64,000 nt of DNA from a virus. The notes below the pieces were generated by a model. The model was not told the DNA's origin, did not search any database, and was given only the letters and a program-made list of their open reading frames with translations. The position numbers and the translations under genes were made by a program. The stretch is taken from the IMG/VR virus record IMGVR_UViG_3300031521_000015; one strand, written 5' to 3'. Of the stretch, positions 23,250 to 37,939 are shown one piece after another. Every line of letters begins with the position of its first letter. Within the stretch, counting starts at the first letter, position 1.

Positions 23250-24725
23250 ATGAGCAAAAAGAATAAGGATAATGATATAATTTTAAGTTTTGTCGGTGGA
23301 AGTAGGGACGATATTTGTGGATCTGCTTTATTAATTAGCTATCCTATAGGAAATGACAAACATAAATGCGTTTGTCTAGAATGTGGCATGATACAAGGAG
23401 AATCAAAACCAGAGATAGAATATTCAATGAATAAAAAAATGGTTGAAAATATTCCAGTAGGAGGTATTTCGGGAGTGTTTTTAATGCACTCCCACGTCTG
23501 AGTAGACCATATTGGGAACACACCTATATTTGGACAAGATATATTCAAAGGTGAAATAATTACAACAGAAGAATGTTTAATGATATCTAAAGAATTATTA
23601 AAAGATAGTGTGTATTTACATGATTGTTTAATAAAAGGTTTAAAAGCAAAAGGGAAAAGACCTAAAAACTTATATACTGAATTAGATATGTATAAGATGT
23701 TAGAGAAGGTAAAAACAGTTGAAACACATCAAGTATATAAATTTGATGATTGGTTAAGTTATGAATTTTATAATTCTGGACATGTATTAGGTGGTACTCA
23801 ATTGAAACTTACTTTTAGACTACCTAACAATAATATAAAATCCTTAGTTTACACAAGCGATTTGGGATCAGATTACAATTTAAAATATAAACCATTTGTA
23901 AAGAAAAGAGATATAATTCCTAAGGCTTCAATGTACGTTTTTGAGGCAACTTATTCAAACTCTGAAAAGTGCTTTGATAAAAATTTAGTAGAAAAAGAAA
24001 GAAATGAACTAAAAGAAACTTTAACTAAATATTTAAAAAGTGGACACCGAGTATTTTTTCCTTCCTTTTCTTTCGGGCGTACCCAAGAGTTACAATTTTT
24101 AATAAATTCGTTTTTTAAAGATGAAGAATGGTTTAATGAAATACCAGTAACAATTGATGGAAGATTAACTAATTCTATATGTGATACTTATAGCAAGATA
24201 TTAAAATATGATGAATTTGAGGACTGGGAGAGAATAAAAAACTGGAAGAATTTTCGTTATAATAAAGAATATAAAGGTACTTTGGGAATATTATCTAAAA
24301 GAGAATGTGGAATTTACATAAGTTCTAGTGGATTTGTTCAACCTAAAACACGTAGTTGTGACTATGTTAAAAATTTTATGGGAGTTACAGGAGATCTAAT
24401 TTGTTTCGTAGGATATTACGGAGCTGAAGGTTCAATTTCTCATGAATTAGTTACTAGACCAATAGGCACTCCTATTAAAATTGATGGAAGTACATTAATA
24501 AAAAGTTGTGATGTTCTTACTCAGAAAACATTTTCGAGCCACATTCAACAAGAAGAAATTTTTAGCTACTGGAGTCAAATAAACACAAATAAGATTCTAA
24601 TACACCATTGTACTGAAGAAGGAAAAATTGAAATGAAAGAAAAGGGAACTGAATATCTACAAAGTAAAAATAAAACAACTAAAATTGTAGGAGTAAGTAA
24701 ATTTGCTTCACAATTCATTTTATAA
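23250..24725 (+). CDS. Metallo-beta-lactamase/beta-CASP nuclease interrupted by in-frame TGA (23499-23501)
   Basis: GSALL..LECG, HSHV*VDHIG, SGHVLGG, YTSDLG, EATY, GRTQE, FSSH; both ORF halves are in the same frame. Confidence 0.85.
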
Positions 24726-32815: not shown

Positions 32816-32831
32816 ACAAAGGAGATTAAGT

Positions 32832-33038
32832 ATGGATAATAAATATATAATATTTTCAGTATTGATTGAATGTGAAGAAAATGGAATAAAAAGATATGAT
32901 TCTACAACTTTAAGTGACTATATGAATGGGCAATCAGAAGAACAATGTTGGGAACAAACAAGAATATTTTGCGAAGAAGCTGGGAAGAAATTTAATGCAA
33001 AATGGATATTATGTGGTAGTCATATAGTAACTTTTTAA
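32832..33038 (+). CDS. Hypothetical protein
   Basis: AAGGAG RBS. Confidence 0.6.
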   Translation: MDNKYIIFSVLIECEENGIKRYDSTTLSDYMNGQSEEQCWEQTRIFCEEAGKKFNAKWILCGSHIVTF

Positions 33039-33058
33039 CAAATTAAAACAATAAATTA

Positions 33059-33087
33059 TTGACAATGATATCCTAATAAGGTATTAT
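33059..33087 (+). promoter_or_regulatory. SigA promoter of endonuclease cassette 2
   Basis: TTGACA-N17-TATTAT. Confidence 0.8.
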
Positions 33088-33092
33088 TATAT

Positions 33093-33198
33093 TAGAAACT
33101 AGATAAGGAGTTATAAACCGTATCGAAAAGGAGTATCCGAACTCCCTGTTTCTATTTTTATAAATTTCGGAAAATAAATTAAAGTACGAATCGGAGGT
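33093..33198 (+). ncRNA. Structured leader RNA, copy 2
   Basis: P1 TAGAAAC/GTTTCTA; P2 loop TTATAA; P3 loop TCCGA complementary to TCGGA at 33167 and 33191 (RBS). Confidence 0.75.
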
Positions 33199-33206
33199 AT
33201 TACATT

Positions 33207-34304
33207 ATGGAAACTAAAACATGTACTAAATGTGGACAAGAGTTCCCAATGTCTAAAGAATATTTTGAACCCAGAAAAGAATCAAAAGATGGATTCAGAA
33301 ATCAATGTAGAGATTGCAGAAATATCAATAGAAGAAATATATATGATGATAAATATAAAAGTGAAGATAATAGAAGATGGCAACAAGAAGAAATAGATAT
33401 ATTGAATAAATATTATGAAATTATGAGTAACAATGAATTACAAGAAAAGTATTTAAACACTAGAACTATTTCTCAAATAATAGATTATGCAAGTAAAAAA
33501 TTAAACTTACATAAACATGATGACGTTAAAATATATTATAGTGATGGTACAACAATGGGGTGGACAAAAGAAGATGATGAATATTTATTAAAAAACTATC
33601 CATCAACAAATTTTAAAGAAATGGAATTAGCTTTAGGAAAAAACAGTTTTACAATAACAGCTAGAGCTATTAAAAAGGGAATACAAAGAGATAATAAGTA
33701 TTCTGAAGAAGAAATAAATATCGTAAAAAAGTATTATGCAGACAATGAAAACAAATGGATTATTGATAATTTTATGAGTAGTAGAAGTAAGACTGAAATA
33801 ATAGGATTAGCAAATCGTTTAGGAATAAATAAAAATGATGAACTGATATTTCAAATAAGAGTTGATACTGGCTTAAAAAATTTAAAATGTATACCTGACC
33901 AAACAGGTTCTAATAGTCCTTGTTGGAAAGGTGGAACAGACGTATTAAGATTATATGTAAGAAACCATATTAGAAAATGGAACAAAGATAGTTTAAAATA
34001 TTATAATAATAAATGTTTTATTAGTGGAGATTCAGAAAATTTGATAATCCATCATGGATACTCTTTTAAAGACATATTGAATGAGACTATAAAAGAATTA
34101 GGACTTACTTATAATAATGATTTATCTAATTATAGTAATGGTGAACTTAGAAATATAATAGATTTATCAAATGAAAAACACTATAAATATGGTTTTGGAA
34201 TCCCTTTAACCAAAGAATTACATTTATTATTTCATAAAACTTATGGTTTTGTAAATTACACAAATGAACAGTTAATAGAATTTAAAAATAATTATGCTAG
34301 TTGA
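33207..34304 (+). CDS. HNH-type endonuclease with zinc finger and Myb-like repeats
   Basis: CTKC..CRDC; W..EE repeats; CFISG..IHH..LHLLFHKTYG. Confidence 0.75.
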   Translation: METKTCTKCGQEFPMSKEYFEPRKESKDGFRNQCRDCRNINRRNIYDDKYKSEDNRRWQQEEIDILNKYYEIMSNNELQEKYLNTRTISQIIDYASKKLNLHKHDDVKIYYSDGTTMGWTKEDDEYLLKNYPSTNFKEMELALGKNSFTITARAIKKGIQRDNKYSEEEINIVKKYYADNENKWIIDNFMSSRSKTEIIGLANRLGINKNDELIFQIRVDTGLKNLKCIPDQTGSNSPCWKGGTDVLRLYVRNHIRKWNKDSLKYYNNKCFISGDSENLIIHHGYSFKDILNETIKELGLTYNNDLSNYSNGELRNIIDLSNEKHYKYGFGIPLTKELHLLFHKTYGFVNYTNEQLIEFKNNYAS

Positions 34305-34400
34305 TAATAAATAAGCTTCAATAACTGAAGGCGTGGTAACACGTCTTTTGTTGCGTTTATGCAAACTTTATTGATATAAAAAGGTGGTGTGGGCAAAAAG

Positions 34401-36252
34401 ATGGGAATTGGAAAGCAAAACTTATCACAAAGAAAATTAGAAGGATATATGAAATATGTAGAAATGATACAGTGGGGCAGAAAAAATCCTGCACGAACGA
34501 TTCGTTGAGGATTTCATGGGAATTCAATTTTTAGATTTACAAAAATATATATTTATGAATATGTGGACTACGCCATTTGTATTGTTATGCCAATGTAGGA
34601 ATAGTGGGAAAAGTACGATTTCAGCTCCATTTTTGATGGCGAAATCCATATTATACCCAAACTTTTATAGTTATATAATATCAACAAATGGTAGTCAAGC
34701 TCAGGAAACTTTCTTAAAAATAGAAAAAATAACCAAGAGACAATTATCTTCATTTACGGGTTTAACAGATTTCTTTCAAAATGAAATAATTACTTCAAAT
34801 GCTAACAAAGATGGGTTCACTCATAAACCAGAGTCATTTACTTTCGAAGTATTTAATGGTAGTAAAGTACATACATTGAACTCAAACTATGATGGATCAC
34901 GTGGGAAAAGAAGCATGTGCAATTTTTATGACGAAACTGGATTTATGTTAGAAAAAGCTTTTGGTGCAACTGAACCATTTACAACACAAAATGCAGACTT
35001 TAAGTTAGGAGGAGATATTGACGTATCACTAGAACCACAAAGTTTTCCAAACCAACTTATATACGCTTCTTCGGCATCAAGTATAGATACTTATTTTTTT
35101 AAAAAATATAAAGAATTTAGTAAACAAATGCTATTAGGAAATAAAAATTATTTCTGTGCTGATATTAAGTGTGATTTAGTTTTAAATCCTATGTTTAATG
35201 GTAAATTATATCCAGTATCTTTGCTAACACAAGAAAAAATAGATAATGCTATGAGAGAAAATAAAGAACAAGCTCTTAGAGAATACCATAATATGTTTTC
35301 TAAAGAAGGTGGAGAACAACAACCATTTAAAAGAGGACAAATAATAAAAAATAGTGAAGTCAGAAGACCAATGTTGGTAAACGAAGGAAATATTGAACGA
35401 CATATCACAGCTTTTTATGATCCTGCAAGAAGTTTTGATGACTCTGCTGTATTGTTTGCTGAATTTATGAAAGATAAGGAATTAGGATGGACTTGTAAAA
35501 TAATAAATGCAGTAAGATTAGTAGATATAGGAACGAAGAAAAAAATACCAATGAGAACACCTGAACAAATAGAGTATATTAGAAATTTATTAGTAGATTA
35601 TAATGGTCAAGGATTTGGAGAATATGAAAATATAGGTGCAATATTGGTAGATTCAGGAGCTGGTGGAGCAGGAGTTAATATTGCAGATTATTTTATGGAA
35701 GAGTGGACAGATAAAAAAGGAATGAAAAGAAAAGGTTTGATAGATGCTATAGAATCTAAAGAATATACAAATAAATTTCCTGAAGCTGTAGATAAAATGC
35801 GATTAATTTCTCCTAAAAAATATAGGACTGAAATGTTTGATGCCTTGGTGGAAATGATTAATTTAGATTTAGTTTCGTTTACGGAAACATATGACATGAA
35901 AGGATTTATAAGTATTCCTGTAGAAACAGAAATAATATATAAAGACGAAAAAACAAAAACAGATAAAAAACAAAAAGAGATAAAATATAAGCAAGCAAAT
36001 TTATGTTTCGAAGAACAATTGGCTTTAAAAACTATAGATAAACTAAAAGAACAATTGGTGCAAATATATAGATTCGATAATGCTGAAAGAACTTCACATA
36101 AATACGCTTTATCTCCTGAAAAACAAAATACTATGCATGATGACTTGGCTTATTGTGGAGCAATGATGGGTTGGTATTTAAAACAATTAAGGAGAGAAAA
36201 TATAACTAATGAAGATGATGATGATGAAGACCGTCAATGGGTATTTTGGTAA
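34401..36252 (+). CDS. terL: Terminase large subunit; N-terminal segment out of frame because of a 4-nt insert at 34497-34500
   Basis: RNSGKS Walker A, FYDE Walker B, YDPARSFDDS and HDD nuclease motifs; upstream frame reads ..QWGRKNPAR, downstream frame FVEDFMG. Confidence 0.9.
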
Positions 36253-36310: not shown

Positions 36311-37939
36311 ATGACAACTTCTAAAAAAATAAACTCTACAGATAATAAAAAATCAGCAGGCAGACCTGTCGGTTCTAAAAACACTTTTACAAAAAAGCAA
36401 GTGTCTGATATGCAACTAAAAATAGATGAATTAGAAAAACAATATAATTCTTATAATGATGTTGTAGATAGTTTTGTAGATGGATTTGTGTTGGAAATGA
36501 CGCAAAATATAAAAACGATAGATATGGATACATTGCAAAGATGGTTTAGTAATCCTGATGATTATATGCAACAAATTAGTAATTTACTTACATATTATTA
36601 TATAATTGATGGGAATATATCTCAACTATATGATTTAATATTTTCATTACCTGAACTTAATTATAAAATAAAAACTTATAAAAGATTAGGTAGCTATGAA
36701 AATGATATGTTAGCTATAAAAATAGCTTTAGAAAGAAATGTTAAACATAAGACATTAACTAGAGAATTACTTGTTCAATTAGCTAATAATGGTTCTGTTG
36801 TTGGCACATGGTTAGGTAGTAAAAAAGAACCTTACTTCAATGTATTTGATGATTTAGATTATATTTATCCATATGGAAACTATAAAGGAAAGATGGTTGG
36901 AGTATTTGATTTATCATACATTGATACACTCACCCCAGAACAAAAAGTAGCTTTATATGATAACTTGAAACCATTGGTTACAGAAAACTTATACAACAAA
37001 TGGAAAGATGAAAGAGATACTGAAAAGAAAAAAATATTACAATTAATTGTATTGCCACCAGATAGGTCATTAGTTGCTAGAACTAGGGTATTATCACATA
37101 ATCAAAGATTAGGATTGCCTCACGGTACTCAAGCAATTTTTGATTTACAACACAAACAAAAGATGAAAGATTTAGAGCGTTCTATGGCTGATAAAATTAT
37201 AAGAGCAATAGCCGTAGTAAAAATGAGAGATAAAGATGATAACGACGTTAAAGTTAAGGAAACTGTACAAAGGAAAGTATTTGAAAAAATAAAGAAAGCA
37301 TTAGAAAAAAATACAAGTGGGAAGAATGGATTAACTTGTATATCAATGCCGTCCTTTGCCGATTTTTCATATCCTGAATTCAAAGGAGCAGACGAGATAT
37401 TAAACCCTAATAAATATGATAGTGTTAACAATGATATTACTATGGGGACTGGTATCTCGTCTGTATTGGGAAATGGATCAGGTGGTAATTATTCAAGTGC
37501 GAACTTAAATCTTGATATAATTTATAGTAAGATAGCTACAATGTTAGAACAAATTGAAGAAATATATAATCAATTAATAGTTATTACACTAGGTCAAAAT
37601 AAAGGTTCTAATTATTACTTTGAATATGATAAACAAAAATCATTAACCAAAAAAGAAAAATTAGATATTTATAAAGGATTATCAGATAAAGGATTTAGCA
37701 TTAGACCTATGATTGAATTAGTTGGTGGAGACTTTGAATCATTTATAAATGAAAGTATATACGAAATAGATGATTTAAAATTAAGAGAAAAAATTATCCC
37801 ACAATTGACATCATTCACATCTACTGATACAGATTCAAATCAAATAGGAAGGACCACAGTGGATAACCCTACTAATGAGTCAACAATTACAAGTAAAGAA
37901 ACTGGTGGGAACAACAATCCAAAACCTAGTACAACATAG
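36311..37939 (+). CDS. Portal protein (putative)
   Basis: 542 aa directly after terL; GISSVLGNG..NYSSA. Confidence 0.75.
   Translation: MTTSKKINSTDNKKSAGRPVGSKNTFTKKQVSDMQLKIDELEKQYNSYNDVVDSFVDGFVLEMTQNIKTIDMDTLQRWFSNPDDYMQQISNLLTYYYIIDGNISQLYDLIFSLPELNYKIKTYKRLGSYENDMLAIKIALERNVKHKTLTRELLVQLANNGSVVGTWLGSKKEPYFNVFDDLDYIYPYGNYKGKMVGVFDLSYIDTLTPEQKVALYDNLKPLVTENLYNKWKDERDTEKKKILQLIVLPPDRSLVARTRVLSHNQRLGLPHGTQAIFDLQHKQKMKDLERSMADKIIRAIAVVKMRDKDDNDVKVKETVQRKVFEKIKKALEKNTSGKNGLTCISMPSFADFSYPEFKGADEILNPNKYDSVNNDITMGTGISSVLGNGSGGNYSSANLNLDIIYSKIATMLEQIEEIYNQLIVITLGQNKGSNYYFEYDKQKSLTKKEKLDIYKGLSDKGFSIRPMIELVGGDFESFINESIYEIDDLKLREKIIPQLTSFTSTDTDSNQIGRTTVDNPTNESTITSKETGGNNNPKPSTT

Follow-up and report, generated by a model that had tools for sequence, protein, structure and literature searches.

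A four-base duplication in the large terminase gene of an SPbeta-like phage, possibly the smallest of a series of ribosomal hop gaps

In the stretch of viral DNA analysed here, 64,000 nucleotides of IMG/VR record IMGVR_UViG_3300031521_000015 (hereafter the window), the gene for the large terminase subunit (TerL) is split: a first open reading frame (ORF) of 35 codons ends a few bases before a 578-codon ORF starts in another frame (Table 1). The split gene is an SPbeta YonF-like large terminase. Since Pfam gave no match for TerL, this identity rests on a match of the ORF to phrog_5989, annotated as terminase large subunit, and on the fold, an AlphaFold (AF2) model of the intact relative P0005 matching T4 gp17, Sf6 gp2 and the TerL proteins of HK97 and D6E (E = 1e-14 to 1e-11). 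The gene order in relatives is also of the SPbeta type (YonJ, YonG, TerL, portal, YonD). No cultured relative closer than 26% identity was found in the GenBank phage collection.

The norm of this family, as seen in over 100 homologues (50-60% identity) and in all 30 loci of IMG/VR and GTDB that cover the N-terminus, is one unbroken protein of about 600-630 amino acids (aa) with the sequence QWGRKNPA[R/K]FVE.F.GI. In the window, frame 0 reads CAG TGG GGC AGA AAA AAT CCT GCA CGA(34494) ACG ATT CGT TGA(34506), i.e. QWGRKNPAR-TIR-stop, and the +1 frame, open from 34468, reads CGA(34498) TTC GTT GAG GAT TTC ATG(34516) before continuing as the long ORF to 36252. An earlier note on this DNA had described the same frames, with NPAR at the first CGA and FVEDFMGIQ following the second, and they are confirmed by the sequence. 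The alignment with homologues across the junction, a check set beforehand, shows the unbroken family sequence and four bases beyond it in the window, gc ACGA ACGA ttcg, a tandem duplication in codon 32/33; the unduplicated form at the same position is GCACGATTCGTT, as in contig L045. Deleting the 4 nt restores the family sequence NPAR-FVEDF exactly, and so would the re-pairing four bases downstream, from CGA to CGA, that the earlier note had proposed. The part of TerL encoded around and before this point is well conserved: of its first 37 residues, 3 are invariant in the family and 9 nearly so.

Table 1. Features of the TerL locus and the beta-CASP gene in the window, and short inserts in TerL genes of related contigs. 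Inserted bases are set in square brackets; SD, Shine-Dalgarno sequence.
Feature	Location	Strand	Length	Basis or remarks
TerL first piece: family codons 1-32, then 3 off-frame codons (TIR) and TGA	34401..34508	+		SD GGTGGTG 34383-34389, start ATG 34401
TerL main ORF: Q motif, Walker A (CRNSGKST), ATPase and nuclease domains	34516..36252	+	578 aa	
Proposed take-off codon CGA (Arg 32)	34494..34496	+		Codon usage; rare, 1.6 per 1000
Four extra bases, second ACGA copy	34497..34500	+	4 nt	Alignment with relatives
Proposed landing codon CGA	34498..34500	+		Sequence
Hairpin with CGA 34498-34500 as apex; 3' arm covers TGA and GAGG	34484..34514	+		Minimum-energy fold
Geometry of termination-coupled restart: TGA 34506-34508, GAGG 34507-34510, ATG 34516-34518	34506..34518	+		
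Portal protein gene, directly downstream of TerL	36311..37939	+		phrog_2739, E = 7e-89
Terminator-like hairpin followed by T-rich tail, upstream of TerL	34327..34348	+		
First ORF of cassette between YonG-like gene and TerL	32832..33038	+	68 aa	
Free-standing HNH-type endonuclease gene, homing-endonuclease candidate	33207..34304	+	365 aa	PHROG matches
beta-CASP/MBL nuclease gene	23250..24725	+		Insert 23499-23504, CAC GTC [TGA GTA] GAC CAT
TerL insert ATA TCT[TGAC TCC]GCT	L036		7 nt	In helix after P-loop
TerL insert TTT CTT[TGA NNN CTN]AAA	L037, L039-L044, L045		9 nt	ETFL|KIEK site
TerL insert TTC TTA[TAG CTGCCgcagGGCAG TAG TAG AAG TTG]AAG	L038:2873-2904		29 nt	Same ETFL|KIEK site
TerL insert, gap one, CTC[ TGAAGACAGA CTT]GAT	L003:2393-2446		13 nt	
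TerL insert, gap two, ATG[TGAGAA ATG]AAT	L003:2393-2446		9 nt	
TerL in-frame insert CGGTAA after KLE	L002:445-450		6 nt	Without matched codon pair

The insert is a heritable 4-nt tandem duplication after codon 32 (ACGA to ACGAACGA). The identical ACGAACGA is present in ten other contigs, eight of them from JGI metagenomes (L046-L053), one from ENA (L035) and one from Logan (L001); the eight JGI contigs are 100% identical across the TerL gene and the ENA contig has one mismatch. A sequencing error, which the earlier note had named as fatal to its reading, is excluded by this finding. At the level of assemblies, an artefact is likewise refuted by the occurrence of the same sequence in independently assembled contigs of all three sources, and its probability is negligible. 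The Logan contig is a diverged carrier, with 86% nucleotide identity to the window in TerL, no mismatch over 34401-34511 and about 2% divergence over 34309-34571, and by the C-terminal part of TerL it groups with L036. Because it diverges elsewhere in TerL yet matches around the site, the duplicated allele sits on two backbones through recombination.

The age and spread of the allele bear on another reading, in which the duplication, named as possibly inactivating in the earlier note too, is a recent lesion that knocked out TerL either in a prophage or in a helper-propagated phage, with further decay still to come. The alignment bears out a duplication of ACGA in a family that is otherwise unbroken at this point, while inactivation as its consequence is unlikely in our view. 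Divergence of 0 to about 2% around the site is that of a young allele, 4-nt duplications are commonplace products of slippage or fill-in, and the eight identical JGI contigs could represent one clonal prophage; but the allele sits on two backbones whose TerL genes otherwise differ by 14%, it recurs in data from three independent sources, and every other large ORF of the 64-kb window is open.

We propose instead, with a probability of roughly 0.4, that the site belongs to a set of translational hop gaps, possibly scars of homing endonucleases, and is the smallest and the weakest among them. In such a hop, peptidyl-tRNA-Arg would stand on the rare CGA 34494 with the rare ACG waiting in the A site, detach, and re-pair 4 nt downstream on CGA 34498. 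Translation would then resume with FVEDFMGIQ and give full-length TerL, probably at low efficiency, and the product would contain the peptide FVEDFMGIQFLDLQK and the NPAR-FVEDF junction. The codons CGA, ACG and CGT are each rare in the codon usage of the window; ACG (34497-34499), the A-site codon after take-off, is a sense codon used 2.5 times per 1000, the 14th rarest of 61. What supports recoding is the context, namely the inserts in sister genes and a second insert in the window, and not the TerL site of the window itself.

Different short inserts, all of them insertions and all within the first 105 codons, are found in the TerL genes of close relatives (72-90% identity; Table 1). In the 9-nt insert at the ETFL site the middle triplet varies freely (CAA, TCA, CCG). 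This gap is spread patchily over both subclades of the tree, and its carriers show ratios of nonsynonymous to synonymous substitution (dN/dS) of about 0.02-0.1 on both flanks at a saturated dS of at least 1; both sides of the gap are under purifying selection. The insert of L038 at the same site consists of UUA, UAG, a 5-bp GC hairpin, two more UAGs and a landing UUG, a layout like that of gene 60 of phage T4 in miniature, and its stem (-15.7 kcal/mol, z = -2.6) places the take-off UUA beside the landing UUG. In L003, the two gaps lie 27 nt apart and base-pair with each other (-21.4 kcal/mol, z = -2.85), the resulting hairpin enclosing the codons of LDLQKYVFM.

Six of the 7 inserts that are not duplications, counting one in a beta-CASP gene of the window described below, have a stop first and as their last codon one cognate to the codon before the insert. 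Because of this arrangement an exact hop restores the family protein at these six. The joint probability of stop-first and codon-matched structure under random inserts is about 1e-14, a rough figure, as the placement of inserts can slide and survivors are selected; this selection of survivors is the argument itself. The seventh insert, CGGTAA in L002, falls outside the hop pattern for lack of a matched codon pair and may be a broken allele or a case of readthrough. TerL is intact in L054. In L004 it is intact except for ATT (L004:2851) in place of the start ATG, 5 nt after GGAGGTG, and this may be a weak-start allele.

Judged from the sequences, a hop from take-off to landing codon would be the sole reading that restores the conserved protein at the sister sites. 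Readthrough cannot account for the 7-, 13- and 29-nt gaps. Recoding of TGA, or a suppressor tRNA, fails on these gaps and on the 4-nt insert as well; moreover, the window has no tRNA gene, conserved Trp residues are encoded by TGG, and genes end with TGA at ATGA overlaps. Except for one, the break points lie within confidently predicted helices (H10-28, H30-38, H44-55, H69-83 and H96-114), and because the breaks fall inside predicted helices a TerL made in two pieces is disfavoured. Since the sister sites fit a hop of peptidyl-tRNA, we infer that the same process may produce full-length TerL in the window. The inserts in relatives also bear on the inactivating lesion considered above. While the TAA insert of L002 indicates that some alleles of the clade may simply be broken, the lesions of the clade as a whole (insertions only, stop first, with matched codons) are not those of random decay.

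A second gap in the window interrupts a gene for a beta-CASP/MBL nuclease, which reads CAC TCC CAC GTC TGA GTA GAC CAT, i.e. H-S-H-V-stop-V-D-H, where the family has the motif HxHxDH. This motif is intact in 58 of the 61 beta-CASP homologues in IMG/VR. An identical 15-nt core, GTCTGAGTAGACCAT, is present in L055, L056 and L057, the protein of L057 being just 39% identical. In a blind scan of the window for stops at junctions of matched codons, ordinary gene junctions swamped the signal in this AT-rich DNA and the beta-CASP site alone stood out. In addition, the called ORFs of four distant beta-CASP homologues (P0198, P0226, P0232, P0233) start immediately before 'VDH', pointing to frame-shifting gaps at this position of HxHxDH.

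Several observations at the TerL site of the window weigh against a hop. The cognate pair CGA 34494/34498 does restore the protein, yet it is uninformative and statistically weightless, since every 4-nt tandem duplication yields such a pair. Neither a stop nor a very slow codon follows directly after take-off, where six sister elements have a stop. Because TGA comes only three codons further on, a hop must compete with ordinary decoding of ACG. Of the terminase frameshift suggested in the earlier note, the geometry has thus stood, and sister inserts with hop geometry have been added to it, but the stop or strongly slow codon after take-off is missing. The hairpin which the same note had placed around the site, with CGA at its apex, fared similarly. 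The sequence AAATCCT-GC-ACGAA-[CGA]-TTCGT-TG-AGGATTT does fold as described, into a 7-bp stem, a 2x2 internal loop, a 5-bp stem and a 3-nt CGA loop, and this is the minimum-energy fold (-11.7 kcal/mol). However, its stability is weak relative to shuffled sequences (z = -1.85; 10 of 200 shuffles as stable), and it is not conserved in L001, where one pair of the stem is lost (-8.9 kcal/mol, z = -0.7). On these grounds the hairpin was rejected as a strong signal. The take-off codon also sits in the hairpin's own 5' arm, unlike the take-off stem-loop of gene 60. A search of Rfam (E up to 1) gave no known RNA family at the site. Lastly, the allele is young and its carriers show no substitutions in the 32 upstream codons, so that selection since the insertion is unmeasurable, and the viability of the carriers, which like all relatives are metagenomic contigs, is uncertain.

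A further point against a hop is that a stop-SD-ATG layout of the textbook type for restart lies 10 nt downstream of the site. Translation of the 35-codon ORF would open the hairpin and stop at TGA 34506, and ribosomes would reinitiate at ATG 34516 by way of the GAGG at 34507-34510; working TerL would then be the 578-aa protein without residues 1-37, with or without a free N-terminal peptide. Such a split gene with termination-coupled restart is possible, though we consider it rather doubtful. The stop, a 4-nt SD core and the ATG are found inside 13 nt, the stop within a few nucleotides of an SD-preceded start as in known coupling, and the 3' arm of the hairpin covers the SD. This core is just 4 nt long, with a 5-nt spacer. 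Where most relatives have GAA GAA or GAA TAT, the sequence at this position is GAG GAT/GAA, the SD-like GAGGA being restricted to the window, L001 and L003, but the Met itself predates the insertion, as it is present in most close relatives, unbroken ones among them. The 578-aa product retains the Q motif and Walker A, yet the conserved positions of residues 1-37 would be absent from it, with F33 and E35 lost from both products, and the break falls within helix 30-38. The conservation of this N-terminal part and the position of the break favour a hop. Restart also leaves the sister gaps unexplained, and was rejected there, as their landing codons (CTA, CTT, TCC, GTA) are not start codons. Restart and a low-level hop could coexist at the site of the window.

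Other forms of recoding are very improbable. A +1 frameshift at CGT TGA G, in the style of antizyme or prfB, would profit from the stop at 34506, at which, in the A site, ribosomes could pause one base short of the +1 frame, and that frame is open well upstream. However, CGU cannot re-pair on GUU, and no SD lies upstream of CGT TGA G, so the site does not have the make-up of prfB or antizyme sites. In the products of this frameshift, or of a +1 slip on the run of six A's at 34481-34486 (..PARTIR-EDF.. or ..RK-ILHER-FVE..), another residue would stand in place of the invariant P30 or the conserved F33. For transcriptional slippage, six A's are short.

Endonuclease genes neighbour the interrupted terminases. 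Between the YonG-like gene and TerL the window has a cassette of about 1.5 kb (about 32816-34308), whose larger ORF matches HNH endonuclease and endonuclease VII families in PHROG and shows, by eye, an HH...H motif near residues 280-345. The same junction is without the cassette in L001 and L054, and holds an unrelated NUMOD1/zinc-finger ORF in L037 and a helix-turn-helix remnant in L036. Such presence or absence of an endonuclease gene at one intergenic locus among close relatives is characteristic of homing endonucleases. The tract of high identity common to the window and L001 (34309-34571, about 260 nt at about 98% identity inside a gene otherwise 10-20% different) starts precisely where the cassette ends on its right, and resembles a co-conversion tract. 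Bonocora et al. in 2011 reportedly dealt with the coding gap of T4 gene 60 and the homing endonuclease MobA. The layout seen here resembles that of MobA and gene 60, where the coding gap protects against the endonuclease. By analogy, we infer that the coding gaps probably arise as changes in the target sites of homing endonucleases encoded at the YonG-TerL junction.

Two further observations concern mobile elements in TerL and the region upstream of it. Six TerL homologues (P0007, P0050, P0089, P0097, P0116, P0120) are 926-995 aa long and contain a LAGLIDADG domain (PF14528), presumably as inteins, a further sign of TerL as a hotspot of selfish elements; in L028 and L029 (IMG/VR), the TerL match spans about 2050 nt versus the usual 1830 nt or so. 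Upstream of TerL, the intergenic sequence with the terminator-like hairpin is kept in L001, L003, L036 and L037, as is TTGCGTTTATGCAAACTTTATTGATATAAAAAGG (34350-34383) on its 3' side, probably the TerL promoter or leader.

A broader proposal, put forward tentatively, is that this SPbeta-like clade routinely tolerates tiny inserts in essential genes by means of natural ribosome hops, over gaps of 4-29 nt at six TerL sites and one nuclease motif, and that these gaps were possibly left by, or selected against, homing endonucleases. CGA-A-CGA would then be the shortest natural programmed hop and the first whose trigger is not a stop but the weak pairing of a rare codon in the P site. The locus forms an allelic series: one conserved gene, open to assay, has gaps at six sites, the shortest being 4 nt long and lacking a stop and the longest 29 nt with a hairpin. 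Because this series includes intact alleles as controls, the requirements of short hops are directly testable. In gene calling these terminases come out split or truncated (as ORFs of 39, 73, 104, 442, 505 and 578 aa), which affects annotation and calls of viability for uncultured phages.

Natural cases of bypassing amount to one that is well studied (T4 gene 60), a mitochondrial system and a candidate in a phage terminase. The closest known case is the terminase of the Streptomyces phage phiHau3, whose TerL gene has two 10-nt inserts beginning with UUA that were proposed to be bypassed (Smith et al. 2013; PMC10732093), and bypassing in this terminase has been shown by mass spectrometry in E. 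coli (PMC10732093). Common to both are the gene, short frame-disrupting inserts without counterpart in relatives, conserved junctions that are restored by exact skipping, and, in some genomes, more than one gap per gene (two in L003). The trigger in phiHau3 is the host's developmentally limited UUA tRNA, whereas the sister gaps start with TGA or TAG and the site of the window has rare codons only. Here, moreover, the host is of low-GC Firmicute type (26.6% GC in the window), and the gaps, of 4-29 nt, are found in the first 105 codons beside endonuclease genes.

The 'stop-hops' of Weiss et al. (1987), engineered in E. coli and inefficient (reviewed in PMC5009743), share with the gaps described here the geometry X-stop-X', in which 9 nt (here 6-12 nt) are decoded as one amino acid. 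This geometry is exact in GTC TGA GTA and CTT TGA NNN CTN; the TerL site of the window has a sense codon where stop-hops have the stop. According to the 2016 review no natural stop-hop was known (PMC5009743), and no report of one was found in the literature since. The 'byps' of the mitochondria of Magnusiomyces capitatus (cited in PMC10732093 and PMC5009743) are many short inserts of 27-55 nt in essential genes, often with an unassigned first codon. They resemble the inserts in TerL in their matched flanking codons, hairpins and mobile-looking distribution, and differ in being mitochondrial, whereas here mostly shorter inserts occur in a phage with the standard bacterial code.

T4 gene 60 has a coding gap of 50 nt that is associated with a MobA homing-endonuclease cassette (Manning and Atkins, bioRxiv 10.1101/2022.08.31.505936). 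Likenesses to it include matched take-off and landing codons, a stop or slow codon where the gap begins (in the sister elements), a take-off hairpin (the stem of L038, with UUA beside UUG), a neighbouring endonuclease gene and a patchy distribution. In contrast to gene 60, the gap in the window is 4 nt long, with no stop after take-off, no SD within it and no known nascent-peptide signal, and the endonuclease gene is located upstream of the interrupted gene and not within it. If the link to endonucleases is true, the logic of MobA and gene 60 extends to a different group of phages.
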